This document shows, piece after piece, positions 4,102 to 43,546 of a stretch of DNA of 64,000 nt. The translations under genes were made by a program, and so were the position numbers. The notes beneath the pieces were generated by a model, which searched no databases, was not told the origin of the DNA, and worked only from the letters and a program-made list of their open reading frames with translations. The stretch's first letter is position 1. Each line of letters begins with the position of its first letter. Source of the stretch: an uncultured Gammaproteobacteria bacterium (GTDB lineage Bacteria; Patescibacteriota; Microgenomatia; Levybacterales; UBA12049); the NCBI GenBank assembly GCA_964653195.1, contig CAZZCX010000004.1:173-64172 (forward strand), written 5' to 3'.

Positions 4102-5535
4102 ATGTCAACCAAAAACAAAATTATAGGGACTATGCTTCCTATTTCTTCTCTTTATTCAATAAAAAATCAAAATTATGTAAATGGAATTATAGATGACGGC
4201 TTATTATTTATAGATTGGTTAAAAAAAACCAATCAACATGCCTGGCAGATACTTCCTATTCATGAAACAGAATATCTAAAAGATACCAGAATCAATAATA
4301 CTTCACCATATAAAGGATTTGGCATAGGTATAAATCCTAAGTATGCTTCAAAAAATTATAAACTTCCAAGCGACAAAGAATTAGATAAATTTCGGAAAGA
4401 AAATGATTTCTGGCTTTCGGATTATTCGCTATTTTGTGCATTAAGAGATCATTTCCAAACAGATGACTGGACGAGTTGGCCTGATGATTTTAAAGATTAT
4501 AAAAAACTAAATATAAATGTGTGGCGTAATAAATTAAAAAAAGAAATTTTACAATTTGATTTAATTCAATGGCAGCTGCATAGTGAATATAAAACTCTAA
4601 AAGATAAAGCCCGTAAAAACAACATATCTCTTATCGGTGATATGCAGTTTTATCTACCTTTAAAAAGTCCACTTATCTGGAAGTATAAGCATTTGTTTTT
4701 GCTAGATGAAAATGCCTTACCTGATTTCGTGTCAGGAGTACCATATAAAAAAGGCGTTATGTATGGAAGACAAGTCTGGGGACATCCATTGTATGACTGG
4801 CAAGATGATTCCCAAAACTCAGAAATTATCTCTATTTTCATTAATAGACTTAAATATCTATCAAATCTTTATGATCTTATCAGATTGGATCACACAAGCG
4901 GGTTTTTCCGTTATGGAAAAATAAATATACATAATAAAAATAATGACGCGATGAGTACAGGTCCCGGCAACAAGGCATTAGAAGAAATAATAAACAGCAT
5001 TGAGAATTCAGACATTCAAATTTTTGCTGAAGATGCTGGATACGATATAGGGACACTTCCTGATGCACTCAAGAAGTTAGAGATCCCGGGTGTGAGAGTA
5101 ATACGATGTGCTTATGATGAAGTTAATAAAAAGTTTAATAATATACATGCAAATATAACTAACTTTCCTCAAAATTCAGTTACATACACAACGACTCATG
5201 ATACAGAAACTTTGGTGGGATTTCTAGAGCAATGTAATTCGTCTGAAAGAAAAATACTTGCGGAAAAACTTGGGATAGAATATACAGAAGATTTAAAAAA
5301 ATACACAACTGAAATGATAAAACTTGCAATAAATTGTCCATCACAATTTGTAATAATCCCATTTCAGGACTGGTTTTTCCTGAAAGATAGGATAAATATC
5401 CCGGGAACGGAAGAAATAAATAATAGAGTAAACTGGAAATACAGGATATCTAGCCCTATTGAGGATTTGATAAATCGTCCTGCCTTAGCTGAGTTTCAAA
5501 CAATTCTGTCAAAACGGGCAAATACATCTGGGTAA
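4102..5535 (+). CDS. malQ: 4-alpha-glucanotransferase (amylomaltase, GH77)
   Basis: 'LIRLDHTSGFFRY' matches the GH77 catalytic 'RIDHFRGF' region, with 'WGHPLYDW' and 'FAEDAG' motifs. Sits with glgP and glgA. Confidence 0.75.
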   Translation: MSTKNKIIGTMLPISSLYSIKNQNYVNGIIDDGLLFIDWLKKTNQHAWQILPIHETEYLKDTRINNTSPYKGFGIGINPKYASKNYKLPSDKELDKFRKENDFWLSDYSLFCALRDHFQTDDWTSWPDDFKDYKKLNINVWRNKLKKEILQFDLIQWQLHSEYKTLKDKARKNNISLIGDMQFYLPLKSPLIWKYKHLFLLDENALPDFVSGVPYKKGVMYGRQVWGHPLYDWQDDSQNSEIISIFINRLKYLSNLYDLIRLDHTSGFFRYGKINIHNKNNDAMSTGPGNKALEEIINSIENSDIQIFAEDAGYDIGTLPDALKKLEIPGVRVIRCAYDEVNKKFNNIHANITNFPQNSVTYTTTHDTETLVGFLEQCNSSERKILAEKLGIEYTEDLKKYTTEMIKLAINCPSQFVIIPFQDWFFLKDRINIPGTEEINNRVNWKYRISSPIEDLINRPALAEFQTILSKRANTSG

Positions 5536-7258
5536 AATACTCTTTCAGCATTCTCGTTGCGGTGAATTCATTTAAAATCAGCTCCCGTGCGTTTTTCATA
5601 TTCTCAAGCCATGCCCCAGGAATACCTTCTCTATTCTTGAAATAATATTCAGGAATAATATTATGCTCAAGAATCTCCATCAGGCTATCGGTAATTCTAT
5701 TACTATCAAGTATCCAGCCTATCTTATAAAGCTCTACTTCCGCTACCCATCCGTCTTTCGTGGTACAGGGCAATACTCCATTTAGACATGCTTTCATACC
5801 GCTTGTACCGCAAGCTTCAAAGCCGACAATAGGTGTATTGAGCCATACGTCTGCTCCACTTGTCATTATTTTCGCAAGATTGATATTGTAATCAGTAAGA
5901 TAAGTAATATATTCTCCCAATTCAGACTCCAGAAGTAATCTTATATCATTAAGCATTCCGGCACCTTCACTATCACTTTCATGGGCTGAGCCAGCTAGTA
6001 CTATACGCACAGGGCGTCTTGAATCCTGAACAAGTTTAAGTAGTTTTTCTTTATTCTGAAATAACGCCAAAGGTCTTTTATAGGGAACTATTCGTCTACC
6101 CCAACCCAACAATAAGTGATTCTCATCCCAAACTTTTCCTGTCTTCTCCTGAATAATATTCAAAAGAGTCCTTTTATTCTCCTGATGCCGCGTCCATAAA
6201 TTAATTACATTTTGATTATCAAAATTATATTTATCTATTAAAGCCATTTCCGAATTCTTAACTCTTAATTCTGAATTATGAATTCCTACTCTATCCCATG
6301 TATCTAAATGTATTCCATTAGTTACTGAAATCATAGGATGGTCTGGCCAAATTTCTTCAGCTTTTTTGGCATGGAGCTTACTTACAGCATTTATTCTTGA
6401 CGCCATGCGCATAGATAGTATAGTCATCGAAAAGATACTTGAATCCTTTACAAGTCCCAATGGAATTAATTCATTGACAGGTACTTGAAGTTGTGCTGAG
6501 TAATCTGAAAGTAGAGCTGAAACCATGTCATTATTGAAGGTATCATTTCCTGCTGCCAAAAGAGTATGGTTCGTAAAGACAATATGTCGTCTCGCACGGT
6601 CTAGCTCATCGTTATATTTTCCTTTGTACTCATTCATTTCATGATTTGCCACTTCAAATGCCAGAAGACCTGAATGGCCTTCATTCAGATGATATACACT
6701 TGGGTGAATCTTGAGAATTTCAAGCAATCTTAATCCGGCAATTCCCAATACAATTTGCTGCTTAAAGCGGGTCTCCTTATTTCCGACATATAGCCTGTCA
6801 TTTATACCACGGTCAAGCGGATCGTTTTCATCAATATCCGTATCCAGTAAAAATACTCTTACTGTTTTAATTTGCTTTTCGAAGGCTCTTACTTTCAATT
6901 GTCTTCCCTGCATAGGAATAGATATAATTACGGGCTGTTTATTTAAATCGACTACCGGTTTAAATCCAAAATCGGGAGGTGCAGATTTAGGCGGATGTTT
7001 AAGAAGTGTAGCGTCATTTACCAACTCATGATGAAAATACCCTTCTTCATAAAACATACCTATAGCGACCAAAGGAATTCCCTGATCCGCTGCTTCAAGA
7101 ATTGTATCTGCAGCTAAAACTCCTAGTCCGCCAGCATAGAGTGGGGAATTATTAATTAGTGCAAACTCTGCGCAGAAATATGCTATAGGGCGAATCTTCA
7201 GAAACTCATATTCTTTAGATTTTCTGAAGTCATCAAACCAATTCTCGTGCTGTTGCAT
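5456..7258 (-). CDS. glgP: Alpha-glucan (glycogen/maltodextrin) phosphorylase, GT35 short form
   Basis: N-terminal 'AYFCAEFALINNSPLYAGGLGVLAADTILEAADQGIPLVAIGMFY' is diagnostic of the GT35 phosphorylase family. Its 3' end overlaps malQ convergently by 80 nt. Confidence 0.8.
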   Translation of the reverse strand: MQQHENWFDDFRKSKEYEFLKIRPIAYFCAEFALINNSPLYAGGLGVLAADTILEAADQGIPLVAIGMFYEEGYFHHELVNDATLLKHPPKSAPPDFGFKPVVDLNKQPVIISIPMQGRQLKVRAFEKQIKTVRVFLLDTDIDENDPLDRGINDRLYVGNKETRFKQQIVLGIAGLRLLEILKIHPSVYHLNEGHSGLLAFEVANHEMNEYKGKYNDELDRARRHIVFTNHTLLAAGNDTFNNDMVSALLSDYSAQLQVPVNELIPLGLVKDSSIFSMTILSMRMASRINAVSKLHAKKAEEIWPDHPMISVTNGIHLDTWDRVGIHNSELRVKNSEMALIDKYNFDNQNVINLWTRHQENKRTLLNIIQEKTGKVWDENHLLLGWGRRIVPYKRPLALFQNKEKLLKLVQDSRRPVRIVLAGSAHESDSEGAGMLNDIRLLLESELGEYITYLTDYNINLAKIMTSGADVWLNTPIVGFEACGTSGMKACLNGVLPCTTKDGWVAEVELYKIGWILDSNRITDSLMEILEHNIIPEYYFKNREGIPGAWLENMKNARELILNEFTATRMLKEYFTQMYLPVLTELFETQLRQDDLSNPQ

Positions 7259-7306
7259 TATTTTAGTATAACAGGTTTTTGCATCAGTCTAAATGCTATA
7301 TTTCAT

Positions 7307-8911
7307 TTATATCAGCAAACTAGAGTACGCTCGATGCGAAATCGGACGGGTGGCTCGTTTTCTTTCCTCAGAAATATGCTTATACCATTTTTCATATTCC
7401 TTTGCTGCTTTCTCCCAGCTGAAATCACAACGTAAGCAATTCAAAATTAATTTCTTCCAGAGAAATTTTTGCTTATATATCGTAAGTGCCTCAATTATAC
7501 TTCCATAAAATGCCCACGAATCATTATTTGTAAAAGAAAAACCGTTTCCTGTACCTTTTACAGGATCGAAATCCTGGATACTGTCATTAAGGCCTCCAGT
7601 ACGACGAACGACGGGCACTGCTCCGTATCGCATAGCTTCCAACGCAACCAATCCACCAGGTTCATATGAACTTGGTATTAAAAATATATCAGCACCTGAG
7701 AATATCTTCCGCGGTAAACGAAAATCAGCTCTTAAATGTAAACCTAACTGTCTGGGATATAGTTTTTGTAATTCAACTAATTTGGTTCTATATGTATCAT
7801 CTCCACTGCCTAGAATTATCACTTGAAGATCAGGACGCTGCATTAATAAATTTGGTAAAACGTGAAGTAAAATATCAACTCCCTTTTGCCTCCATAGTCT
7901 ACCTGCAAAAGCTAAAAGAGGAGCATCAATATTTACAGGAAGTAAAAATAATTTTTGCAATTCAATTTTATTTATTTTTCTTGCTTTTTCAAAAGTCTTT
8001 TCTGTAAATCTTGCTTTAATAATCGGATCTGTAGAAGGATTAAATTCATCAGTATCAAGTCCGTTCAATATTCCTATAAGCTTGCCTTTAACTTTTTCTA
8101 AAGCATCATCCAATCCTTCAGCATATTCTGAAGTCAATACTTCAATTGCATGGGATGGACTTACTGTATTTATAGCATCAGCATAAAGTAAACCACGTCG
8201 CAATGCATTATGTTTTTGAAAACTTCTCGAGAGAATTGGCGATAAATCTGTAGTGCCATCATCAAAATCTTCTTTCTTTGCAAAACGGTAATCATAATTT
8301 CCCTGAAATGCGAAATTGTGTACTGTTAAAACAATCGCAGTCTTTGCGAAAATATGTCTGTATCTTTTATCACGACGTGCCATACCGATAAGATATGCTG
8401 TATGCCAATCGTTACAATGAATCACATCAGGCCACCATTTATCTTTATCGCCTTTATTATCTAAATACAGTTGATATAACCACTCTAAGCATCCTTTAGA
8501 TAACAATGCAAACCTAACATGATCATCCATATACCCGAATACGTTTGCACGCAACTCATAATATTCCCGATTTTCTAAAAAATATGCATGAATGCTGCGT
8601 TTTCTATTGATATACGTTTTGACATTGCAAATAAGATAATCCTTTCTATCTTGTTTCAATTGAATATCGGTTGCATTGTTTACTAAAGGTACCTTTAATC
8701 CCTTGATCGACAATTTCATTTTCCAGGATTTTCCATGTAAAGGATCAGAATCCATTTTCCCGTATTTTGGTGTAAAAATCCGTACATCATTTCCCATACG
8801 CGATAACATTCGAGGTAAAAAATACATGACTTGCGATAAACCACCAACGGAGACGAAAGGGGCTACTTCAGCGCATACAAACAAGATATTCACGCCTGTA
8901 TTGTAACACAA
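7307..8911 (-). CDS. glgA: Glycogen/starch synthase (GT5, ADP/UDP-glucose type)
   Basis: N-terminal 'ILFVCAEVAPFVSVGGLSQV' corresponds to the GlgA 'KTGGLADV' motif. C-terminal GT-B fold ('GGLNDSI'). Confidence 0.8.
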   Translation of the reverse strand: MCYNTGVNILFVCAEVAPFVSVGGLSQVMYFLPRMLSRMGNDVRIFTPKYGKMDSDPLHGKSWKMKLSIKGLKVPLVNNATDIQLKQDRKDYLICNVKTYINRKRSIHAYFLENREYYELRANVFGYMDDHVRFALLSKGCLEWLYQLYLDNKGDKDKWWPDVIHCNDWHTAYLIGMARRDKRYRHIFAKTAIVLTVHNFAFQGNYDYRFAKKEDFDDGTTDLSPILSRSFQKHNALRRGLLYADAINTVSPSHAIEVLTSEYAEGLDDALEKVKGKLIGILNGLDTDEFNPSTDPIIKARFTEKTFEKARKINKIELQKLFLLPVNIDAPLLAFAGRLWRQKGVDILLHVLPNLLMQRPDLQVIILGSGDDTYRTKLVELQKLYPRQLGLHLRADFRLPRKIFSGADIFLIPSSYEPGGLVALEAMRYGAVPVVRRTGGLNDSIQDFDPVKGTGNGFSFTNNDSWAFYGSIIEALTIYKQKFLWKKLILNCLRCDFSWEKAAKEYEKWYKHISEERKRATRPISHRAYSSLLI

Positions 8912-8971
8912 AACTAGCTCCAGTTGAGCACCAAATTAATAATTTTTTTTTGTAATTTATTTTTTAAGTTT

Positions 8972-10480
8972 CTAACCGAGACTTTTTCGAAGAATTGCAG
9001 CATCTTGTATCAATTTCGCAAGAGACTCACCGGTATCAATTTTTTTCACTATTTCTGATGTGATTAATAAATGCTTTTTCTCTTCTTTCGTTAGGGGAGC
9101 TACCTCTTCGCCTAAATATATTTCAACTTCTTTAATATCCTCTTCTATATCAGACCATACTTTATTTTCTTTTGCCAATATAGAAAGGTTTTTCTTGTTT
9201 AAATATCTACCCGCTCTCATAAGATCGGCTTTTATATTTATATAAAACTTTTCAAGCGTCGGAAGTAGACCTAAAGTTTTTGCTTTCTTTATCCCTCTGC
9301 CAGTGCCTATAAACTCTGGAGGAATACCTAGAGAATACAAAGCAGCAGTAAATCCAATTGCGCGAGGTAATTTTACTTTTCCTACGCCTCTTGAATATCC
9401 GAAAAGACCAATATGCTGAACCCGCTCTCGCCTTCTTGGTAGCATCGATGCTATAGTATTTATAAGCTCTGCTATCTCCTCAATAACGGGCGTATATTGA
9501 TTTTCAAATATTTCAACCATCAAGCGTATTTCTTTTTCTTCAGCTCCTGATACATCTAGTGCAGATTTCTGTGGTAACAGTTTCTCAAGATTCACTACAG
9601 CTTTTATTACATCTTTTTTTTCGTAGTCATAACGGAATCCGCTTTGAATAAGTGCAGTTCGAATACCTCTGTATTCATTTACAAATTCATTTATATTTAG
9701 AGGTGTGAGTCCGCCACGGAAAGGAAGTGAAGCAGAACCAATTACAGGATAAAGTTCTATATCTTCTCTTTCTGAATAATTCTTATATTTGGACAATGCT
9801 AGCTTGATGGCAAGTACTGTAGGTACGATTCCAGCATTTAATGCTGGATCTGAACGTGCTAAATAAGGCCTTATATAACTAGGTCTGAATTTAAATTTTT
9901 TCTTATGCATTTTTAAATATGTATCTAAAATCTTATCTGAATTCATTATCGTCTCGACATCTTCAAAAAGCGGTATCAACTCAATATGTCTTAAATTTCT
10001 ATCTCCCATTCGATATAACTGATGTTTTAGAGAAGCAATTTCCCTAAAGGCTTCTTGAACGGCGATCATTTCCCCAGCACTTGTGGTCATCGGTAGGATT
10101 ACTTCAAAAAGAGGTGGACTATAAAATCCATATTGACGGGCAATCATATCTGCACTAAGAATTCCCATAAAGGCACGTCCTATACGAAACTCTGTCTCAA
10201 CCTTTGGATTTGGCAGACGGAAAGTTAGAAATTTATCGTATCCTAATTGATGAGTCTTAAAAAATTCATAGTGAGTGCTTAAAAGCCTCTCCATTACTGA
10301 TTCATCAACCAGTTTTCCCTCCCAGTCCCATTTATATTCAGAAACTCCTAATTCAGAAAATGACAGAAAACACTCAAAAGTCTCGTGATTCGTACTTATA
10401 AATTCTTCAGTATGCCAATAAGGCTTGCCGGCGTGATCCGGATGCTGAGATATCATAGCTGCTGAAATTTTTCTAGTCAT
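8972..10480 (-). CDS. ppcA: Archaeal-type phosphoenolpyruvate carboxylase (PpcA family)
   Basis: 502 aa. N-terminus 'ISAAMISQHPDHAGKPYW', 'WDWEGKLVDE' and 'FLTFRLPNPKVE' match the hallmark motifs of archaeal-type PEPC (MSTQHPDN / WDAEGKDVD / LTYRLPNP). Confidence 0.8.
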   Translation of the reverse strand: MTRKISAAMISQHPDHAGKPYWHTEEFISTNHETFECFLSFSELGVSEYKWDWEGKLVDESVMERLLSTHYEFFKTHQLGYDKFLTFRLPNPKVETEFRIGRAFMGILSADMIARQYGFYSPPLFEVILPMTTSAGEMIAVQEAFREIASLKHQLYRMGDRNLRHIELIPLFEDVETIMNSDKILDTYLKMHKKKFKFRPSYIRPYLARSDPALNAGIVPTVLAIKLALSKYKNYSEREDIELYPVIGSASLPFRGGLTPLNINEFVNEYRGIRTALIQSGFRYDYEKKDVIKAVVNLEKLLPQKSALDVSGAEEKEIRLMVEIFENQYTPVIEEIAELINTIASMLPRRRERVQHIGLFGYSRGVGKVKLPRAIGFTAALYSLGIPPEFIGTGRGIKKAKTLGLLPTLEKFYINIKADLMRAGRYLNKKNLSILAKENKVWSDIEEDIKEVEIYLGEEVAPLTKEEKKHLLITSEIVKKIDTGESLAKLIQDAAILRKSLG

Positions 10481-10494
10481 AAATAATTGTTTTT

Positions 10495-11655
10495 TTAACT
10501 TTCTATAAAATTTTTGATTCCTTTAATTCCTTTTTCTATATTCTCAAAAGACGCAGCATAGCTAAGTCTAAAATAACCAGGATAAAAAAAGGCTTCTCCC
10601 GGCACAACAGCTACTTTTTGTTTTTCAAGCAATGCTTCACACCACTCACTTGATGTTTTATATTTGTTATTTAATATTTTCTCTATAGATACGAAAACAT
10701 AGAACGCCCCTTCAGGCTCGACTATTGAAATACCCGGAATAGATCCTAAATTCTTTAAGAGAAAATCTCTTCTCAATACAAACTCTTTGTACATTTTTTT
10801 CAAAGGCAACTGCGTACCCATAAGTGCTTTTGTACCAGCAACTTGAGAAAATGTTGCAGCACTTGATGCAATCTGCGTTTGCAAATTTATCATAGACGTA
10901 ATAATTTCCCTAGGACCGCCTGCAAAACCCACCCTCCAACCAGTCATTGCATAGGCTTTTGATAAGCCGTTAATTGTTATAGTCCGCGTCTTTACTTCAT
11001 TATTTATTGACGCTATGGATATATGCGAACCTCTGTACACTAACTTCTCATATATTTCATCTGAAATAATATAAAAATTGTGTTCTACTGATAAGTCTGC
11101 AATTTTTTTAAGTTCTGATCTATCAATCATCGCACCAGTTGGGTTTGATGGACTATTAAGCAAAAGTATTTTCGTCTTTTTTGTTATATGTTTTTTAACA
11201 AGTGCTGCAGTTAATTTAAAAGGGCTCTCTAATTTAATAAATGCCGGTTTTCCCCCGCAAATATTTACCTGTTCTGCAAATGTATTCCATGCTGGGATGG
11301 GAATGAGTACTTCATCACCATGATCTAAAAGTGTTCGATATGCAAGATACAATAAAATTTTACTACCTAAACCTACTATAATCTCAGACAAATCATATTC
11401 AATTTTGTTATCTTCATAGAACTTTTTTTGTATTGCAATTCTAAAATCCAACAATCCTGAAGCTTGCGAATAATGAGTGAATCCGTCACTCATTGCCTTA
11501 ATGCAACTTTGCTGAATATGAGCTGGAGTATCAAAATCTGGTTCACCCACACCAAGGTTTATGACTTTTATGCCTTCTGACTGCATTGTTTTGACACGAG
11601 AATCAAGACTCACAGTAGGCGATGGTTTAAGATTTGAGGAAAGCTTTGAAAGCAT
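10495..11655 (-). CDS. Class I/II PLP-dependent aminotransferase (aspartate aminotransferase-like)
   Basis: 'SKAYAMTGWRVGFAGGP' PLP-lysine region, 386 aa. Adjacent to PEPC, so oxaloacetate to aspartate is a plausible role. Confidence 0.75.
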   Translation of the reverse strand: MLSKLSSNLKPSPTVSLDSRVKTMQSEGIKVINLGVGEPDFDTPAHIQQSCIKAMSDGFTHYSQASGLLDFRIAIQKKFYEDNKIEYDLSEIIVGLGSKILLYLAYRTLLDHGDEVLIPIPAWNTFAEQVNICGGKPAFIKLESPFKLTAALVKKHITKKTKILLLNSPSNPTGAMIDRSELKKIADLSVEHNFYIISDEIYEKLVYRGSHISIASINNEVKTRTITINGLSKAYAMTGWRVGFAGGPREIITSMINLQTQIASSAATFSQVAGTKALMGTQLPLKKMYKEFVLRRDFLLKNLGSIPGISIVEPEGAFYVFVSIEKILNNKYKTSSEWCEALLEKQKVAVVPGEAFFYPGYFRLSYAASFENIEKGIKGIKNFIES

Positions 11656-15379: not shown

Positions 15380-15639
15380 AATTAATTAAATAACGATTCC
15401 AAATTTAGCCTTAATATATTAACATGAACTGGATATAAAATAAAGCGAGAGATTGCTTAAAGAAAAATCTAGATAGTCCAAAATAAAGATAGTTATTGCA
15501 AAAACCTGATACATTCAAATAACACTTCAATCTAACAAAAGTCAAAAGACTTTTTCATCCATTTTCTAAATAGCACCAAAAACTAGCAAATTTGAGGCTA
15601 ATCGTATCATAGTATACTATACATCCTATAGTTGACTTT

Positions 15640-16440
15640 GTGAAACTTAAAGCCTATAATAAGCGCATGAAAGCAGTCATTTTGGCCGGTGGTTACGGCA
15701 CAAGAATTAGCGAGGAAAGCGGTATACGACCTAAGCCTATGGTTGAGCTTGGTGGTAAACCTATATTATGGCATATAATGAAAATATACCATACTTACGG
15801 AATTAACGATTTTATAATTTGTGCAGGTTATAAATCACACGCGATCAAAGAATATTTCGCCAACTACGCACTCTACAACTCAGATGTTACCTTCGATCTC
15901 ACTACCCATACTCAGATTACCCATAAAAATGGTGCAGAACCGTGGAAAATAACAGTAGTTGAAACAGGTGAAAGTACGATGACCGGAGGAAGACTTAAAA
16001 GAGTTAAAGACTACGTGGGAAATGAGACATTTTTATGCACATATGGAGATGGAGTAAGTGATGTAAATATAACAGATACAATTGCTTTCCATAAAAAGCA
16101 CGGTGGAGTTGGAACTGTAATTGCAGTACAGCCTCCCGGGCGCTTCGGAATCTTCAGCCTTCATGATGGTAATACTACAATCACAAGTTTCCGAGAAAAA
16201 CCAAATGGTGATGGTGCCTGGATAAATGGAGGATTCATGGTCTTAACACCTGAAGTTTTTGATTATATTAAAGGCGATGATACTGTTTTTGAGCAAGAAC
16301 CAATGGAGAACATGGCAAAAGATGGAAAGTTAAATGCATTTAGACATAATGGCTACTGGCAGTGCATGGATACTCTTAGAGACAAAATGATGCTTGAATC
16401 AATCTGGCAAACAGGAAAAGCCCCTTGGAAAGTCTGGTAA
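15640..16440 (+). CDS. rfbF: Glucose-1-phosphate cytidylyltransferase
   Basis: 'MKAVILAGGYGTRISEESGIRPKPMVELGGKPILWHIMKIY' is almost a verbatim RfbF/DdhA N-terminus. Length is 266 aa. Confidence 0.85.
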   Translation: MKLKAYNKRMKAVILAGGYGTRISEESGIRPKPMVELGGKPILWHIMKIYHTYGINDFIICAGYKSHAIKEYFANYALYNSDVTFDLTTHTQITHKNGAEPWKITVVETGESTMTGGRLKRVKDYVGNETFLCTYGDGVSDVNITDTIAFHKKHGGVGTVIAVQPPGRFGIFSLHDGNTTITSFREKPNGDGAWINGGFMVLTPEVFDYIKGDDTVFEQEPMENMAKDGKLNAFRHNGYWQCMDTLRDKMMLESIWQTGKAPWKVW

Positions 16441-16444
16441 ATAT

Positions 16445-17473
16445 ATGAAAGTACTAATTACAGGAATTGATGGATATATTGGCGCGGTTTTATCACAAGT
16501 CTTAATCGAAAAAGGTCATAACGTCACAGGTATAGATACCGGTTTTTATCGTGAAGGCTGGCTATATAATGGAGCAAATATAATGCCCCTTGTAATAAAT
16601 AAAGATATCAGAGACGTAACACAGGAGGAGCTTGAGGGATTTGATGCTGCAATTCACCTTGCCGATCTTTCAAACGATCCTCTTGGTCAACTGGATGAAA
16701 AATCTACTTATGCCATAAATCATATCGCAGCAGTAGAGTTCGCAAAGAAAGCTAAAAAAGCAGGTATAAAACGATACCTTTATAGTTCATCCTGCAGCGT
16801 CTATGGAATCGCCAAGGAAGATATTGTAAATGAGAAGTCAGCTACCAACCCCCAGACTACTTATGCTAAATGCAAATTACTAGTCGAAAATGAACTTAAA
16901 GCAATTGCTGATGATACGTTCTCACCTGTCATACTCAGAAATTCTACTGTATTTGGCATATCTCCAAGACTACGATTTGATCTAGTCGTAAATAATCTTT
17001 CCGGTCATGCATTTATAAATAAAGAAATACGTCTTGCCAGTGACGGTACGCCTTGGAGACCTTTGGTACATATAAACGATGTAAGCGAAGCATTTGCACA
17101 AGCTTTAATTGCACCAAAGGAAATAGTACACGCTGAAATATTCAATGTAGGCAAAATCGGAGGAAATTATCGAATAATTGATGTAGCTTCTATCGTGCAA
17201 AATGAATTCCCGGATTGCAAAATATCAATCGGAAATAGCAACGGGGACACAAGATCATATAGAGTGTCTTTTGAAAAAATAAATACCATACTTCCCGGAT
17301 ACAATGCAAAAAAAGATGTTGCGTTTGGTGTCAGGCAATTAAAAGAGTTATTTGAGAGAGTTAAGTTATCAAAAGAGCAATTCGATTCACGTGCTTTTAC
17401 CAGACTCAAGATGATCGAATACTTACGCCAAAGCGGTCAGATAACCAATGAATATTATTGGAATAAAAAATAA
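16445..17473 (+). CDS. NAD-dependent sugar-nucleotide epimerase/dehydratase (extended SDR, GalE-like)
   Basis: Rossmann 'MKVLITGIDGYIGAVL', 'YSSSCSVYG' and catalytic 'YAKCK' (YxxxK). Start moved to the internal ATG at 16445; the ORF-track start at 16394 overlaps rfbF. Confidence 0.7.
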   Translation: MKVLITGIDGYIGAVLSQVLIEKGHNVTGIDTGFYREGWLYNGANIMPLVINKDIRDVTQEELEGFDAAIHLADLSNDPLGQLDEKSTYAINHIAAVEFAKKAKKAGIKRYLYSSSCSVYGIAKEDIVNEKSATNPQTTYAKCKLLVENELKAIADDTFSPVILRNSTVFGISPRLRFDLVVNNLSGHAFINKEIRLASDGTPWRPLVHINDVSEAFAQALIAPKEIVHAEIFNVGKIGGNYRIIDVASIVQNEFPDCKISIGNSNGDTRSYRVSFEKINTILPGYNAKKDVAFGVRQLKELFERVKLSKEQFDSRAFTRLKMIEYLRQSGQITNEYYWNKK

Positions 17474-17475
17474 AT

Positions 17476-18711
17476 ATGGTTACATTATTTAACTGCAGAT
17501 TCTGTCAAACACCATTATCACATACCTTTGTAGATCTAGGTATGTCCCCTGTCGCAAATGATTATTTAAAAGAAGATCAATTCAAAGATGAAAAATTTTA
17601 TCCTTTACATACTTATGTCTGCGAAAATTGTTTTCTGGTACAACTGCCAAATGTCGTCGCCCGAGAAAAAATATTTAACGATAAATACGCTTATTTCTCA
17701 TCCTACTCTGACAGTTGGCTAAAACATGCCAAGGATTACGTAAGTATGATGATGAAAAATTTTAAATTTAATAATGATTCTTTAGTGGTAGAACTTGCCA
17801 GTAATGACGGTTATTTACTGCAATATTTCAAAGACGCGAAAATTCCTGTTTTGGGTATTGAGCCAAGTGCAAACGTGGCAGAAGAGGCAATGAAAAAAGG
17901 GATTCCATCAATTGTGAAGTTTTTCGGCGTACAAACAGCCAAAGAACTAGTGATGGAGAATAAATATGCAGATCTAATAATTGGAAACAATGTTTTCGCG
18001 CATGTCCCAGATGTAAACGATTTTGTAGGAGGTATGAAGATTCTTTTAAAACCGGATGGAATAATAACTATCGAATTTCCTCATCTTATGAATTTAATTA
18101 ATCATAATGAGTTCGATACAATTTATCATGAACATTACTCATACTACTCATTCATTACTGCAGAGAAAATATTCGCCAAACATGGAATTACACTTTTTGA
18201 TGTTCAGGAGGTGTCTACTCACGGAGGGTCGCTTAGAATTTACGGACGACATACAGAAAATTCAGCACTAAAAGTAAATGAAAGAGTGAATTTACTTCGC
18301 GAGAAAGAAATTAATGCAGGATATACTGATTTAAGTTTTTATTCACAATTTCAAAAAAAAGTACTTATCACAAAAGAAAATTTTATAAATTTTATAAAGA
18401 ACGCCAAATCTGAAGGGAAAACTATCGTAGGTTATGGTGCTCCTGCAAAGGGTAATACTTTGCTTAATTATTGCAATTTGAGTATAGATTGTATCACTTA
18501 TACAGTAGATAGAAGCATTCACAAGCAAAATCATTTCTTGCCGGGAACACATATACCGATTTACGCACCAGATAAAATAAAAGAAACTAAGCCTGATTAT
18601 GTCCTTATTCTTCCTTGGAACTTAAAAAATGAAATAAGTGAACAAATGTCATATATAAGAGAATGGGGTGGTAAATTTATTGTCGGTATACCTGAAATTC
18701 AAATATTTTAA
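17476..18711 (+). CDS. SAM-dependent NDP-hexose C-methyltransferase-like (zinc-ribbon plus methyltransferase plus C-methyltransferase C-terminal domain; TylCIII/CoxC-like)
   Basis: N-terminal Cys-rich 'CRFCQTPL...CENC' zinc ribbon followed by a class I methyltransferase core, 411 aa. This architecture is typical of sugar C-methyltransferases in O-antigen and antibiotic sugar pathways. Confidence 0.6.
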   Translation: MVTLFNCRFCQTPLSHTFVDLGMSPVANDYLKEDQFKDEKFYPLHTYVCENCFLVQLPNVVAREKIFNDKYAYFSSYSDSWLKHAKDYVSMMMKNFKFNNDSLVVELASNDGYLLQYFKDAKIPVLGIEPSANVAEEAMKKGIPSIVKFFGVQTAKELVMENKYADLIIGNNVFAHVPDVNDFVGGMKILLKPDGIITIEFPHLMNLINHNEFDTIYHEHYSYYSFITAEKIFAKHGITLFDVQEVSTHGGSLRIYGRHTENSALKVNERVNLLREKEINAGYTDLSFYSQFQKKVLITKENFINFIKNAKSEGKTIVGYGAPAKGNTLLNYCNLSIDCITYTVDRSIHKQNHFLPGTHIPIYAPDKIKETKPDYVLILPWNLKNEISEQMSYIREWGGKFIVGIPEIQIF

Positions 18712-18714
18712 ATT

Positions 18715-19992
18715 ATGAATATCGACTCAAAACTTACTAAACTAATGAAAGAAAATAAGCCAATCCGCGTAGGACTTATCGGTGCTGGTTATGCTGCAGC
18801 TGGCTTCGCTTTACAAATTCTGGCAAATGAAAACGGTATAAAGCTCGTGGGAATTGCAAACAGAACAGTCTCAAAAGCAAAAAATATTTATAAAAAATCA
18901 GGTATTGATGCAAAAGAAATCGATAACAGAGATGGACTCGAAAAAGCAATGCAAGATTCAAATTATTTGGTAACCGATAATTATGAATTGTTATGCGAAT
19001 CAACCATGATAGATGTCATAGTTGAGGCAACGGGGGACGTAGAATTCGGGGCACAAGTCGCAGTAAAAGCAATTGAGAACGGAAAGCATTTGGTGCTCAT
19101 CAACGCAGAGCTCGATTCGACAATAGGACCTATCTTAAAACACTACGCTGATAAAAAAAATGTCATATATACCCAAACAGACGGAGACCAGCCAGGGGTA
19201 ATAATGAATTTATTTAGATACGTAAAACTTTTAGGCCTTACTCCTATAGTTGCTGGAAATATAAAAACGGTTCTTGATAATTACCGAACTCCCGAAACCC
19301 AAAAAATGTGGGCAGATGAAAATAATCAAAGCCCGCATCTTGCCACAACTGCTGTAGATGGTACAAAAATCGCAATGGAAATGGCCACAGTCGCCAATGC
19401 TACAGGTATGAAGATAGGTACAAGGGGAATGCATGGCTTTTCTATGAAGCATGTTAATGATGCATTAAATAATTTCCCACTTGATAAGCTTCTAAAAGAC
19501 GGTGGAATTGTCGATTATATTTTAGGTGCAGAACCCAGTTTCGGAGTTTTCATCATAGCTCACACCGATAATCCGGAAAGACAAAAGTATTTGAAAATGT
19601 ACAAAATGGGCATAGGTCCTTTTTATGTATTCTATAGACCATATCATTTGTGTACACTGGAAACTCATTTGAGTGTAGCTGAGGCTGTGATAAATAAAAA
19701 CGCAACTCTTGCTCCGTTAGGAAAACCTGTATGCGATGTCATAACTGTTGCCAAAAAAGATTTAAAGAAAGGTGAGAAACTCGATGGAATTGGAGGTTTT
19801 AGTTGCTTTGGAGTTATAGAAAACTATGATACTAGTAAAACACAAAATCTTCTGCCTATGGGACTTTCAAAAGACTGTATTTTAAATAAAGATATAAAGA
19901 AAAACAGCACAATCTCATATAGTGATGTAACCCTGCCAAAAAATAGATTATCAGATAATCTTCGCGATAAACAAAATAAATTGTTTTCATAA
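18715..19992 (+). CDS. NAD(P)-binding oxidoreductase with C-terminal SAF domain (COG4091 'predicted homoserine dehydrogenase'-like)
   Basis: N-terminal Rossmann 'IRVGLIGAGYAAAGFA'; C-terminal SAF-like region 'PLGKPVCDVITVAKKDLKKGEKLDGIGG'; 425 aa. Confidence 0.55.
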   Translation: MNIDSKLTKLMKENKPIRVGLIGAGYAAAGFALQILANENGIKLVGIANRTVSKAKNIYKKSGIDAKEIDNRDGLEKAMQDSNYLVTDNYELLCESTMIDVIVEATGDVEFGAQVAVKAIENGKHLVLINAELDSTIGPILKHYADKKNVIYTQTDGDQPGVIMNLFRYVKLLGLTPIVAGNIKTVLDNYRTPETQKMWADENNQSPHLATTAVDGTKIAMEMATVANATGMKIGTRGMHGFSMKHVNDALNNFPLDKLLKDGGIVDYILGAEPSFGVFIIAHTDNPERQKYLKMYKMGIGPFYVFYRPYHLCTLETHLSVAEAVINKNATLAPLGKPVCDVITVAKKDLKKGEKLDGIGGFSCFGVIENYDTSKTQNLLPMGLSKDCILNKDIKKNSTISYSDVTLPKNRLSDNLRDKQNKLFS

Positions 19993-19995
19993 CTT

Positions 19996-20880
19996 ATGAA
20001 AAAACTAATAAATATAACAGTTGGTATTCCGACACGCTATGCAGGTAATTCCCTGCTTAAAACGGTGGAAACAATATTTGCATCAAATATAACGAATATT
20101 AGATGTATCATTGTAGCTGATAATATACCTGTTTCGTACTCATTAAGAAAGAAACTTGAGAAATTAGGAGCTGAGATTTACTGGAATCCAAAACCGGGAA
20201 GTCAATTTAAAAAACTGAAACAAATTATAAATAAAACTGATACTGATTTATTTATATTTACACAGGATGATATCACATTCAGACCGGATACTATCTCAGA
20301 AATTATAAAAACCTTCAGCAAAAACCCTTCAGTTACGATGGTAGGAAGTCGTATTTTACCATTGGCACCAGTAACGCTTTTTGAGAAAAGCATGACTTCT
20401 ATGGTAAGAATTATTGATCGGGTTTCAGGTAAATGGAATAAAGGCAGAAACTATCTCACAGCAAGCGGACGATGTATCTCATTCAAGACTAAATTACTGA
20501 AAAAGTTTATAATCCGCGAACAAATTGTAAACGGTGATATGTATTTATACCTGGAAAATAAAAGACTTGGAGGCGAAATCATGCGCGCCGGAAAATCAAA
20601 AGTATATATACGCTGTCCGCAATCTATAAATGATCAGATTGGACCAAGCAGCAGATATCAGTTTTCAGAAACAGAATTAAAGAAATATTTCGATTTCGAT
20701 ATAAAACCTGAATATCATATTCCTTTTTTCGTACTTGTCAGAGCGACAATAACTGAGCTTATACTTCATCCGAGATCGGCATTATTATATTTTTTTATTT
20801 TTATATATACTCGTATAAAACGTCAACCATATCACACCATAAGTCCTATCTGGAAAATTGACGAATCTACGAAAAAGTAA
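19996..20880 (+). CDS. Glycosyltransferase-like protein (GT-A / GT2-like)
   Basis: 'ITVGIPTRY' N-terminal strand-loop and 'FIFTQDDITF' DxD-like motif. Placed inside the sugar-nucleotide cluster. Confidence 0.45.
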   Translation: MKKLINITVGIPTRYAGNSLLKTVETIFASNITNIRCIIVADNIPVSYSLRKKLEKLGAEIYWNPKPGSQFKKLKQIINKTDTDLFIFTQDDITFRPDTISEIIKTFSKNPSVTMVGSRILPLAPVTLFEKSMTSMVRIIDRVSGKWNKGRNYLTASGRCISFKTKLLKKFIIREQIVNGDMYLYLENKRLGGEIMRAGKSKVYIRCPQSINDQIGPSSRYQFSETELKKYFDFDIKPEYHIPFFVLVRATITELILHPRSALLYFFIFIYTRIKRQPYHTISPIWKIDESTKK

Positions 20881-20949
20881 TCGCTTGTAAGTTGAGCTTA
20901 ATAAGTATAGAATCAAACTCAACTTCAACAATCTGCCACAACATTAGTT

Positions 20950-21540
20950 ATGCTCGCAACTAATATACTTATATTACCTACTATTAGAAGAAAAAATGGT
21001 GAAACTATATTTATTAAATCTGTTGAACGGATACTTAATAAATTTATATTTTTCTTATCTGCAAATGACAAAATACTTGATCTAGGCTCAGGCACTTGTA
21101 TGTTTACACGTATTCTTAAAAATAAAGGATTTAACATTACACCTGTAGATATCAAAAACAGAAGTTATTACGAAGATATAACACCGATTATTTATGACGG
21201 TAAAAAATTACCATTCAAAAATGATTCCTTTGATATGTGCATGCTGATCGCAGTTTTGCACCATACCCAAAATCCAGAAATCGTGCTTAAAGAAGCAATG
21301 CGGGTTTCAAAAAAAATCATATTACTCGAAGATATATATACTAATACTCCGCAAAAACTATATACCTATTTTATAGATAGTTTACTAAACAAGGAATTTA
21401 TCGGACATCCCCATACAAATAAAATGAATTCTGAATGGCTAGCGTTATTTAAAAAGCTAGGGTTAAAATTAGTGAAAAAAGAATACTCAAAAGCTTACGG
21501 TTTCCTCCAAAACGCTACCTATTATCTTGAGAAAATTTAA
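20950..21540 (+). CDS. Class I SAM-dependent methyltransferase
   Basis: 'ILDLGSGTCMFTRIL' motif I, with acidic motif II and motif III downstream; 196 aa. Confidence 0.7.
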   Translation: MLATNILILPTIRRKNGETIFIKSVERILNKFIFFLSANDKILDLGSGTCMFTRILKNKGFNITPVDIKNRSYYEDITPIIYDGKKLPFKNDSFDMCMLIAVLHHTQNPEIVLKEAMRVSKKIILLEDIYTNTPQKLYTYFIDSLLNKEFIGHPHTNKMNSEWLALFKKLGLKLVKKEYSKAYGFLQNATYYLEKI

Positions 21541-41218: not shown

Positions 41219-43546
41219 ATGGGCCTGCCTTTTAAACTGCATCTCTTTAGAAAAACTCCTGAGGAAGGTTATTACCTTGCTTTAGTACTCCGTGATGAAA
41301 AAGTAGCTGCCTTAATATTCAAAGAACTGGAAGGAAAAATTACGATAGTAGCTAAAAGAGAAGAAACGCTTAAAGATACCCTTGAGAAAACTCCCCTTGA
41401 TGAACTTGTAACCATACTTGATAAAATAATCTCACATGTTGAGACTAGACTTCCGGCAGATATAGAGATAAAAGATACAGTCTTCGGTTTGAAAGATAGT
41501 TGGGTAAGTGAAAAAAAGATCAGTAAGGACTTCCTTACCAAGCTCAAACATATTTGTTCAGAATTAGATCTTAAGCCAATTGGTTTTATTGTGTTGCCTG
41601 AAGCTATAGCGCATCTTATAAAACAAGAAGAAGGCGCACCTGTGACCGCCCTAATTTCTGAAGTTGGTAAATTCGGAGTGACTGTAAGCTTATTTAAAGC
41701 AGGAAAACTAATCGAAACAAAGACAAAACCAATTGTCAGCACACCAATGCACGCTGTAGATGAAGTTTTAAAAGAATTTGAAAATGTGGAAATTCTCCCT
41801 TCCAGAATTATACTATTCCATGCAACTACTGAATTAGGCGATATTAATAAAGATGAATTAAGTCAGCAATTTATAGCACATAGCTGGAGTAAAAGTTTGC
41901 CTTTTTTACAAATTCCGCAAATATCGATACTGCCTCATGAGTTTGATGGTAAAGCAATTGTAGCGGGCGCAGCCACTCAGCTAGGCTTTGAATTCACCGG
42001 CTTACCTCAGGATTTAAACGAATCAGAAATAATTGATTTTGATCCAAAAAAAAGCAGAAGAATTAATAAACTTACAAATGCCGATCATGATCTAGAGATC
42101 GAAAAAAAATCTGATAAAACAACTTCTGAAAGTATAAACGCAAATGCTTTCGGATTTGTTCTAAATGAAGATATTACAACTATACCCAAACATGTAAAAG
42201 AGAATTCAATGCAAGCGATAAATAATTCAGAAACCGATTTTGAAGATAGAAACACACGAGTTGAGAAACGAAACGATTTCGCACTTAATGAGGTAATTGA
42301 GGAAAATAATGATGAAAATATATCTATAAAAAAATCAAAAGCAAATCCCCTTTTTCTTATAACTACTTTTTTTAGGAAACTTAAACCGCGGTCATCTACA
42401 ATAGCTAAAAAAAATTGGTTGTTTCTTATTCCACCAATTCTTATCCTGTTACTTATAGCATCCCTGCTCTTATATTTCTTTTCTTTAAAAGCTACTGTAA
42501 CACTTATTGTTTCTCCAAAAGATGTTGAAGAAACTCAACGGATAACCTTATCAACAAAATCACAAAATGATTTCACAAAAAATATAATTGCTGCAAAAGA
42601 GTTAACTGTAGCAATTGAAGGTAGCGCCGAAACAGAAACATCTGGCGAAAAAGAGGTAGGAGATAAAGCAAAAGGAACTATCACACTGTTTAACAGCGAT
42701 GAATCTAAAAAAACATTCAAGGAAGGTACAGAGATAGCATCAGAAAAAGGTTTAATTTTTGTTCTTGATAAAGAAACCAGTGTAGCTTCTGCTTCAGGCG
42801 ATATATTTACTGGTATAAAGTCTGGAACAGCACAAGCACCTGTGACAGCTTCAAAAATCGGTACAGAATATAACTTGCCGTCAAATTCAAAATTCAGTAT
42901 TCAGGGAACAGACGTGGTAGCTGCAAAAAACGAATCAGCATTTTCAGGAGGAACTAAGAAAAAAGTTACAGTTGTCACCCAAAAAGATGTAGATAAACTA
43001 GAAGAAGAGCTACCAAAGAGCTTAGAGGAAAAAGCGCGTACTGAACTAAAAAAGAAATTGAATGGTAATGAAGAACTACTTACAGGTTTTACAGATATTA
43101 CTCTATCTAAAACAACATTAGATAATGCAGTCGATAAAGAAGCAAAAACAGTAAAACTTACAGGTACTGTAAATTTTATATCTGTAGCCTATGATAAAGA
43201 TGATTTACTTCAATTTGCTGAAGAAAGTATAAAAGAAAGGTACACCAAGGAGGAACTTAATCGTGACAATATTGATACAAAACTAAGCGGTATCAAAGAT
43301 ACAAGTGAGACAGAACTGACTGCAGTCGCTGCCATTAACGCAGGCCTACTTCCTAAAATCGATATAGAAGATATGAAAACAAAACTTACTGGAAAATCTT
43401 TTACAGAAGTAAAAGAATTAGCAAGAGGTACATCGAGTCAAATAAAAGATGCTCAAATAACTCTTTCACCAAATCTTCCCTTTTTACCAGAAGTGCTTCC
43501 TAGAATTACAAAAAATATAGACATTATTGTCAATACAAGCCTTTAG
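41219..43546 (+). CDS. Large bitopic membrane protein of unknown function (~390-aa cytoplasmic N-domain, one TM, ~360-aa extracytoplasmic K/T/E-rich domain)
   Basis: Single strong TM helix 'WLFLIPPILILLLIASLLLYFFSL' near residue 400 and no recognisable catalytic motif. Followed by a sortase gene. Confidence 0.4.
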   Translation: MGLPFKLHLFRKTPEEGYYLALVLRDEKVAALIFKELEGKITIVAKREETLKDTLEKTPLDELVTILDKIISHVETRLPADIEIKDTVFGLKDSWVSEKKISKDFLTKLKHICSELDLKPIGFIVLPEAIAHLIKQEEGAPVTALISEVGKFGVTVSLFKAGKLIETKTKPIVSTPMHAVDEVLKEFENVEILPSRIILFHATTELGDINKDELSQQFIAHSWSKSLPFLQIPQISILPHEFDGKAIVAGAATQLGFEFTGLPQDLNESEIIDFDPKKSRRINKLTNADHDLEIEKKSDKTTSESINANAFGFVLNEDITTIPKHVKENSMQAINNSETDFEDRNTRVEKRNDFALNEVIEENNDENISIKKSKANPLFLITTFFRKLKPRSSTIAKKNWLFLIPPILILLLIASLLLYFFSLKATVTLIVSPKDVEETQRITLSTKSQNDFTKNIIAAKELTVAIEGSAETETSGEKEVGDKAKGTITLFNSDESKKTFKEGTEIASEKGLIFVLDKETSVASASGDIFTGIKSGTAQAPVTASKIGTEYNLPSNSKFSIQGTDVVAAKNESAFSGGTKKKVTVVTQKDVDKLEEELPKSLEEKARTELKKKLNGNEELLTGFTDITLSKTTLDNAVDKEAKTVKLTGTVNFISVAYDKDDLLQFAEESIKERYTKEELNRDNIDTKLSGIKDTSETELTAVAAINAGLLPKIDIEDMKTKLTGKSFTEVKELARGTSSQIKDAQITLSPNLPFLPEVLPRITKNIDIIVNTSL

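Follow-up and report, generated by a model that had tools for sequence, protein, structure and literature searches.

A six-gene cluster in a Patescibacteria genome with a predicted route to a C-methyl-branched CDP-hexose and a DLO1-type oxidoreductase as its likely terminal ketoreductase

This report concerns six adjacent genes, here called G1 to G6, in a 64,000-nucleotide stretch of contig CAZZCX010000004.1 (the whole stretch is referred to as the window), whose genes have their nearest relatives in Patescibacteria of the Microgenomates type. With a probability of roughly 0.6, we read these genes as one transcription unit for making and using a C-methyl-branched hexose linked to cytidine diphosphate (CDP). 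In the proposed pathway, G1 would first make CDP-D-glucose, which G2, holding a tightly bound nicotinamide adenine dinucleotide (NAD), would oxidise at C4 to CDP-4-keto-D-glucose while keeping the 6-hydroxyl, its cofactor probably being re-oxidised by 2-oxoglutarate. G3 would then use S-adenosylmethionine (SAM) to methylate C3 or, less likely, C5, exploiting the acidity beside the 4-keto group, and G4 would reduce that keto group with the phosphorylated cofactor NADPH to give CDP-3-C-methyl-D-hexose. Finally, the membrane-associated G5 would move the sugar onto an acceptor in the envelope, while G6 may methylate the sugar or the product. The starting material for this proposal consists of observed family assignments, gene linkage and residue conservation, and the genes themselves are as follows.

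15667..16440, + strand: G1, RfbF, glucose-1-phosphate cytidylyltransferase (TIGR02623, PF00483)
16445..17473, + strand: G2, extended short-chain dehydrogenase/reductase (SDR) (PF01370)
17476..18711, + strand: G3, sugar C-methyltransferase (PF08421 + PF13489 + PF08484)
18715..19992, + strand: G4, DXR-II-like oxidoreductase of DLO1 type (PF21135 DRL_cat + Rossmann domain)
19996..20880, + strand: G5, family-2 glycosyltransferase (GT2) (PF00535)
20950..21540, + strand: G6, small class I SAM methyltransferase (PF08241)

Predicted enzymes of sugar activation, oxidation and C-methylation

In the open reading frame (ORF) list of the window, all six genes lie on the + strand between 15667 and 21540 with gaps of 2-69 nt (4, 2, 3, 3 and 69 nt in order from G1 to G6), just as an earlier note made from the same letters had described them, co-directional and tightly spaced. 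An independent gene call on a public contig with identical DNA returns the same six genes. That note had also named G1 a glucose-1-phosphate cytidylyltransferase, and this is borne out by a match to the equivalog model TIGR02623 at 417 bits, against a cutoff of 300, over model positions 1-255 of 255, together with a match to PF00483. Accordingly named, G1 is predicted to make CDP-D-glucose.

The second gene fared differently, since the GalE-like epimerase or dehydratase suggested for it is better replaced by a C4-dehydrogenase resembling Cj1427 of Campylobacter jejuni. G2 matches the broad Epimerase family (PF01370, 2.5e-37), and in NCBIfam it reaches no curated functional model, with no match to the CDP-glucose 4,6-dehydratase model TIGR02622 and only 87 bits to the GalE model. 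Among solved structures its best relative is Cj1427, with which it aligns end to end, and a profile of 24 G2 orthologues scores Cj1427 at 164 bits, whereas the next solved SDR reaches 107 (57 bits lower). The YAKCK motif and the catalytic Ser of the SDR Ser/Tyr/Lys set are conserved. Where the dehydratase RfbG has TSDKCY and the TSDK/TDE motif of dehydratases would stand, G2 has SSCSVYG, and it thus lacks the acid/base pair of these enzymes. The invariant Asp31 at the end of the second beta strand in G2 orthologues suggests NAD as the cofactor. Cj1427 oxidises C4 of a heptose linked to guanosine diphosphate (GDP) without dehydration, and its tightly bound NADH is regenerated by the reduction of 2-oxoglutarate to L-2-hydroxyglutarate (PMC10680097). 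G2 is therefore a probable NAD-dependent CDP-glucose C4-dehydrogenase of this kind.

The sequence of G3 marks it as a true SAM-dependent nucleotide-sugar C-methyltransferase of the TylC3/TcaB9/MtmC family. It is composed of PF08421 (3.7e-24), the class I core PF13489 (1e-11) and PF08484 (5.7e-62), and gives full-length matches in the PDB to MtmC (5e-80), KijD1 (2e-65) and TcaB9 (1e-64). In the alignment to 3ndi, the four zinc cysteines (C7, C10, C49 and C52) are identical, as are the equivalents of TcaB9 Y76, H181, Y222, E224 and H225, five positions of the active site. The profile searches thus point to a zinc-ribbon sugar C-methyltransferase, as first proposed, rather than to a generic small-molecule methyltransferase, and with it the idea of a C-methyl-branched CDP-sugar is supported. 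G3 probably methylates C3 of a 4-keto sugar, or else C5; each of the two is a neighbour of the keto carbon, and NovU is an example of a family member that methylates C5. Homologues 63-67% identical to G3 are very common across phyla, and in the contexts that were read (Pseudanabaena, Kaiserbacteria and Jettenia) they stand in the order RfbF-RfbG-C-methyltransferase-RmlC, with a different reductase. G3 belongs to a distinct and very widespread subfamily linked to CDP-glucose genes.

The DLO1-type oxidoreductase and its conserved neighborhood

G4 carries the catalytic domain PF21135 (DRL_cat, 1e-50) and a Rossmann domain, and aligns over its full length with Brucella DRL (PDB 3upy; 1e-76, 36% identity), while no NCBIfam model names it. 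The Rossmann half of the earlier description therefore stands, whereas the SAF domain that accompanied it does not, as G4 has no Pfam match to it at E<=0.01; some homologues have weak matches to PF08666. The assignment to COG4091 holds as a family and can now be narrowed to the DLO1 branch of the DXR-II family (DXR, the reductoisomerase of 1-deoxy-D-xylulose 5-phosphate, abbreviated DXP). In 2013 this family was divided, true DXR-II being separated from two clades of uncharacterised oxidoreductases (DLO1 and DLO2); Thr229, with Lys191 and Lys193, anchors fosmidomycin or the substrate in DXR-II, DLO1 is recognised by a Leu, Ile or Val in position 229, tested DLO members failed to complement a DXR defect, and DXR-II arose within the family by functional divergence (PMC3847144). 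G4 has Ile (I219) at DRL position 229 and keeps one of K191 and K193. The same pattern extends to its relatives, in which position 229 is Ile or Leu in 81 of 81 aligned members, with one of the two lysines kept, and none of the 81 departs from D225, K228, E232, N238 and H323 (DRL numbering). The Ile at 229 and the single lysine mark G4 as a predicted DLO1-type enzyme and not a DXP reductoisomerase, a placement that is drawn from homology and residue 229. An Asn-Arg-Thr triplet after the second beta strand, invariant in the G4 family, suggests that NADPH is used. Our search of the literature, directed at COG4091, at DLO1/DLO2 and at C-methyltransferases acting on CDP-sugars, turned up no study of what the G4 family does.

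A scan with the G4 alignment, taking one genome per species, found relatives in at least 597 species, and the 80 best-scoring of these loci were re-annotated by tblastn with cluster representatives that had been checked against Pfam and NCBIfam. They come from Patescibacteria, Cyanobacteria, Chloroflexota, Acidobacteriota, Desulfobacterota, Bacteroidota, Actinomycetota, Planctomycetota and others. An epimerase of the RmlC family (TIGR01221, above cutoff) lies within 9 kb of the G4 homologue in all 80 of these best-scoring loci, and in 79 of them it precedes that homologue on the same strand, the two genes being a median 75 nt apart. RfbF accompanies them in 69 of the 80, where the G1 homologues adjoining the G4 family are mostly ~57-69% identical to G1. 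Every locus also has one of three keto modules. The first is a G2-type SDR (42 loci) and the second the CDP-glucose 4,6-dehydratase RfbG (TIGR02622, 512 bits; 20 loci), while the third combines a nucleotide-sugar 6-dehydrogenase, present in 19 loci, with an SDR of the decarboxylase type, present in 17. The three modules should yield CDP-4-keto-hexose, CDP-4-keto-6-deoxyhexose or CDP-4-keto-pentose, the kind of substrate that an RmlC-type epimerase needs. The G2-type SDR and RfbG share the position after RfbF, and they are largely alternatives across the loci, with one alone in 54 loci and both in only 2.

These linkages bear on the role of G4, because a pathway of this kind must end in ketoreduction and the G4 homologue is the sole oxidoreductase that is always present. 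It is thus most likely that G4 acts as the terminal C4-ketoreductase on a CDP-4-keto sugar, and we infer that the DLO1 family supplies this activity throughout the RfbF-(keto module)-RmlC-DLO cassettes. The cleanest natural test case for the reductase function is found in a member of the Leptolyngbyaceae (locus L071, 7218-11290), where RfbF, RfbG, RmlC and the G4 homologue stand isolated among unrelated housekeeping genes; the four-gene set contains no other reductase and forms the CDP counterpart of rmlABCD. In 60 of 68 loci the nearest-neighbour G4 has the same type of keto module, a figure that is confounded by taxonomy, and G4 homologues across module types have a mean identity of 58%, which argues for one conserved role.

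The same loci also bear on the mechanism of G2. A gene for L-2-hydroxyglutarate oxidase (NF008726, 621 bits, cutoff 299) lies beside the G2-type SDR in 18 of 42 loci, mostly cyanobacterial, and 13 of these 18 SDRs are 50-54% identical to G2. Its presence fits the reaction of Cj1427, in which 2-oxoglutarate is turned into L-2-hydroxyglutarate, and this linkage lends independent, if indirect, support to a ping-pong mechanism with recycling of the by-product. In the cyanobacterial loci L046, L053, L054, L060, L063, L072, L075, L077 and L078, the oxidase gene is placed between RfbF and the Cj1427-like SDR (at ~6800-8100), and there it looks like a dedicated means of recycling the by-product of the ping-pong dehydrogenase.

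The most distinctive feature of the window, which the earlier note overlooked, is that the RmlC-like epimerase is missing and a C-methyltransferase stands in its place. The search of the 64-kb window for an RmlC-like gene gave no significant match, the best having E = 0.013 and covering 35 residues. G3 stops 3 nt short of G4, in the very place that RmlC takes in other loci. The genes are co-conserved in related genomes: loci L088-L091 have the same six genes in the same order with the same housekeeping neighbors and G4 homologues that are 73-75% identical, while the more distant locus L095 has RfbF-SDR-C-methyltransferase-DLO-GT2, without RmlC and without a G6 homologue, its G4 being 47% identical. 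Since the RmlC-less order is syntenic in relatives, the gene was not lost recently. The C-methyltransferase and RmlC do occur together in L018 and L040, two loci of Microgenomates. The cluster in the window is therefore a mosaic of modules, comprising a cytidylyltransferase, a Cj1427-type oxidase, a C-methyltransferase that replaces the epimerase, and a DLO1 reductase. Its product is probably a CDP-3-C-methyl-hexose with the 6-hydroxyl kept, and, an epimerase being absent, it would remain a D sugar. As a separate observation, the C-methyltransferase of L095 (6618-7850) is 48% identical to that of the window, compared with 63-67% for the homologues in RfbG-type contexts of other phyla, which may reflect either independent recruitment or exchange by gene transfer.

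Alternative pathways and known systems

Several points weigh against the proposed pathway. We infer every chemical step, together with the regio- and stereochemistry, the cofactors and the acceptor. The similarity between G2 and Cj1427 is moderate for a single sequence, at 95 bits; the substrate of Cj1427 is a GDP-heptose; and no gene resembling L-2-hydroxyglutarate oxidase was found in the 64-kb window. RfbG is the partner of G3's nearest homologues, so that a 6-hydroxy substrate would be without precedent, and the known TylC3-type enzymes use 6-deoxy (mostly 2,6-dideoxy) sugars linked to deoxythymidine diphosphate (dTDP). Beyond these 64 kb, the genome could still have a gene resembling RmlC. 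Furthermore, the 80 loci were the top scorers among at least 597 and are related by descent, and hence the counts drawn from them are not independent events.

In an unlikely alternative, G2 is a divergent CDP-glucose 4,6-dehydratase and the cluster makes a CDP-6-deoxy-3-C-methyl-hexose, later O-methylated by G6. The C-methyltransferase subfamily normally follows RfbF and RfbG, and a methyltransferase gene, G6, is at hand in the cluster. Such a product would resemble CDP-vinelose, a 6-deoxy-3-C-methyl-2-O-methyl sugar nucleotide reportedly isolated from Azotobacter vinelandii, on which a literature search gave nothing. Against a dehydratase, however, stand the missing TIGR02622 match, the low GalE score and the SSCSVYG of G2, its near mutual exclusion with RfbG over the loci (54 against 2), and its grouping with Cj1427, which does not dehydrate (PMC10680097).

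It is slightly less probable still that the roles of the two oxidoreductases are swapped, with G4 as the dehydrogenase creating the keto group on CDP-glucose and G2 as the final ketoreductase or epimerase. G2 does also resemble SDR C4-epimerases and reductases, and Rossmann enzymes of the HSD/GFO-like type include nucleotide-sugar dehydrogenases. In RfbG-type loci (such as L071 and those of Pontibacter), however, the keto group is already provided, and the G4 homologue is the sole oxidoreductase left to remove it; G4 homologues are alike enough across module types, as given above, to speak against a change of role, and G2 takes the position of RfbG directly after RfbF.

Lower again is the chance that G4 is a reductoisomerase that shifts the skeleton of a CDP-4-keto sugar by a DXR-II-like ketol or retro-aldol/aldol step and then reduces it to a ring-contracted or hydroxymethyl-branched product. 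The full-length identity of 36% to Brucella DRL and the five polar residues invariant in 81 members agree with this, and a 4-keto sugar after an RmlC-type epimerase is the type of substrate proposed for dihydrostreptose-type ring contraction (PMC9095892, in outline of the pathway), the mechanistic analogy being ours. Simple hydride transfer would, however, account for those residues just as well, a dedicated branching enzyme is already at hand in the window cluster as G3, and DXR-II activity diverged within the family, the DLO members tested having left the DXR defect uncomplemented (PMC3847144). If it were true, branched CDP-sugars of a class so far overlooked would be made by the RmlC-DLO pair of hundreds of species, and the product in the window would be doubly branched.

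The last candidate, that G4 is a true DXR-II of the methylerythritol phosphate (MEP) isoprenoid pathway merely adjoining sugar genes, as its strong similarity to DRL and the use of COG4091 as a DxrII marker (PMC10663253) might suggest, is excluded by the residue test (Thr229 replaced by Ile, the DLO1 signature, and one substrate-anchoring Lys lost) and by the linkage of its family to RfbF in 69 and to RmlC in 80 of the 80 best-scoring loci.

The proposed C-methylation pathway can be set beside several known systems. In the classical CDP-3,6-dideoxyhexose pathways (RfbF/G/H/I, Asc, Ddh) the first enzyme and the nucleotide carrier are the same as in the window, whereas the cluster of the window is without RfbG, the E1 enzyme that depends on pyridoxamine 5'-phosphate (PMP), and the E3 reductase. 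The absence of E1 and E3 had been recognised in the earlier note and is upheld here, as no domain of E1 (DdhC/RfbH, DegT family) or E3 (DdhD/RfbI) is present in G1-G6 or the scanned flanking genes; the only DegT-family signal in the scanned window proteins is a weak match on a class I/II aminotransferase at 10498-11655. No RfbG-like sequence was found in the 64-kb window either. With RfbG, E1 and E3 all absent from the cluster, no deoxygenation is expected.

A closer parallel is the CDP-D-fucose / CDP-6-deoxy-L-altrose pathway of C. jejuni HS:41 (HS41.21-HS41.17), shown in 2025 to consist of a cytidylyltransferase, a 4,6-dehydratase, a 3,5-epimerase and an NADPH-dependent C4-reductase (PMC12369002). 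It matches the wider RfbF-RfbG-RmlC-DLO loci gene for gene in its logic, and, like the pathway proposed for the window, it has glucose-1-phosphate cytidylyltransferase as its first enzyme, a CDP-4-keto sugar as intermediate and a C4 reduction as its last step. The window differs in lacking the 4,6-dehydratase, the 3,5-epimerase as well as the pyranose/furanose mutase and in adding a C-methyltransferase. The putative C4-reductase of the window has a DXR-II-like fold, and the HS41.18 reductase was compared by its provisional annotation as a 'nucleotidyl-sugar dehydratase' only (PMC12369002). The GDP-heptose pathway of C. jejuni HS:2 (Cj1427/Cj1430/Cj1428; PMC10680097) resembles the window in the use, as predicted for G2, of a C4-dehydrogenase that leaves the terminal hydroxyl in place and sets free a 4-keto sugar; it differs in that the window has CDP rather than GDP, a hexose rather than a heptose, C-methylation rather than epimerisation, and a reductase of another family.

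With respect to the individual enzymes, TylC3, TcaB9, KijD1 and MtmC (PDB 3ndi, 5t64, 4rv9) share with G3 the same three domains, the zinc site and the active-site positions, and a keto group next to the methylated carbon, which they require, would be needed by G3 as well. The TylC3-type enzymes act, however, on dTDP-2,6-dideoxy or amino sugars in the antibiotic pathways of actinomycetes, whereas the G3 subfamily is tied to CDP-glucose genes. Brucella abortus DRL/DXR-II (PDB 3upl, 3upy) and its DLO1/DLO2 relatives share with G4 the DRL_cat domain and the invariant polar core, at 36% identity; G4 differs from DRL at residues by which the phosphonate or phosphate is anchored, and the context of its gene is nucleotide-sugar rather than isoprenoid synthesis.

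Predicted glycosyl transfer, genomic setting and significance

The GT2 assignment originally given to G5 is sound (PF00535, 36 bits against a cutoff of 23.3). Its subfamily yielded 82 homologues, of which every named member is from Patescibacteria, and in loci of these candidate phyla radiation (CPR) bacteria they directly follow different CDP-sugar cassettes or G4 homologues. The AlphaFold2 (AF2) model of G5 (predicted local distance difference test, pLDDT, 90.7) has a GT-A fold with two short C-terminal helices, and its Foldseek matches are the membrane GT2s hyaluronan synthase and PcManGT, at template modelling (TM) scores of 0.59-0.65. Set against polyprenyl-phosphate GT2s of the GtrB/ArnC/DPMS type, G5 thus presents GT-A with two short helices, and these two membrane enzymes as its top fold matches. 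Presumably, G5 transfers the modified sugar to a membrane-proximal acceptor, the nature of which is a guess. Many relatives have pairs of large membrane proteins with weak matches to PMT_2 (GT-C) nearby, a hint that the intermediate may be lipid-linked and the transfer extracytoplasmic. In the 64-kb window, no GT-C-like gene was found. In L092-L095, the membrane proteins near the GT2 are pairs of ~500-550 residues, and a kinase-like gene of the PF01636 (APH) family directly follows the GT2 in L092 (2678-3700) and L094 (9920-10930).

G6 is indeed a small SAM methyltransferase (PF08241, 5.9e-13), and it is co-conserved after the GT2 in L088-L091 and also present in L006 and L018. Its matches in NCBIfam and the PDB are to generic methyltransferases only, from which no substrate can be assigned, and the O-methylation of the sugar entertained in the earlier note is therefore pure conjecture and here stays a guess.

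Transcription of the cluster may be directed by a promoter-like site immediately upstream, and a weaker one precedes G6:

15632..15660, + strand: promoter-like site, TTGACT-17 nt-TATAAT (consensus match only, function inferred)
20885-20913: weaker promoter-like site, 9/12 matches, within the 69-nt gap before G6

The first, with 11/12 matches, is the best promoter-like site of the region. Its -10 hexamer ends 6 nt before the ATG of G1 at 15667, and no Shine-Dalgarno-like sequence is visible before the start of G1 (15632-15667), so that the operon mRNA may be leaderless. The internal gene spacing of 2-4 nt suggests translational coupling. The start of G1 is most likely this ATG rather than the GTG at 15640, given that the TIGR02623 model aligns from residue 10, that the independent gene call has 257 aa, and that the promoter-like match occupies 15632-15660; the start of G2 was placed at ATG 16445 and not at the overlapping TTG 16394. 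In the whole 64-kb window, no Rfam family reached the gathering threshold and no tRNA gene was found, and the two terminator-like matches both lie inside genes and are fewer than in shuffled sequence.

The six genes are flanked by housekeeping genes, upstream by those for an RsmB-like methyltransferase, a major facilitator superfamily (MFS) transporter and phosphofructokinase, and downstream by those for a hydrolase of the haloacid dehalogenase (HAD) family, argininosuccinate synthase and lyase, SecA and seryl-tRNA synthetase. The 'atypical composition' ascribed to the cluster is true of its gene set and not of its nucleotides, for which no anomaly across the six genes relative to the window was seen: the single genes have GC fractions of 0.29-0.40 and the window as a whole 0.351, and being unremarkable these values give no sign of foreign origin. 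Nor is the pathway unusual for a reduced genome, as had been supposed, since the same type of cassette with the same GT2 recurs in many lineages of Patescibacteria; the cassette is common, not exceptional, in their reduced genomes.

Elsewhere in the window, a ClpB-like chaperone on the - strand (51070-54392) consists of two ORFs overlapping by 4 nt, one at 52794-54392 with Clp_N, AAA and AAA_lid_9 and the other at 51070-52797 with AAA_2 and ClpB_D2-small, which represent either a naturally split gene or a frameshift. Next to it, also on the - strand (54502-58527), is a 1341-residue ORF with no Pfam match that might encode a large surface protein. A 775-residue ORF on the + strand (41219-43546) has only a weak Baseplate_J match (5.9e-05) in Pfam, and a block of glycogen-metabolism genes at 4102-10480 (a GH77 4-alpha-glucanotransferase, a phosphorylase-like and a GT5 starch-synthase-type gene) lies beside an archaeal-type phosphoenolpyruvate (PEP) carboxylase (PF14010).

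Taken as proposed, the pathway provides a testable function, the terminal reduction of CDP-4-keto sugars, for a family that was set apart from DXR-II in 2013. This family occurs in at least 597 species of most bacterial phyla, so that COG4091 proteins of its DLO1 branch are probably misnamed where automated annotation labels them DxrII or homoserine dehydrogenase-like. The linkage to L-2-hydroxyglutarate oxidase suggests that ping-pong oxidation of the Cj1427 type, paired with recycling by that oxidase, is widespread and is used on CDP-glucose. For the Patescibacteria, the pathway predicts that the envelope bears a rare C-methyl-branched hexose, which would offer a handle on the surface chemistry of these uncultured, host-dependent bacteria.

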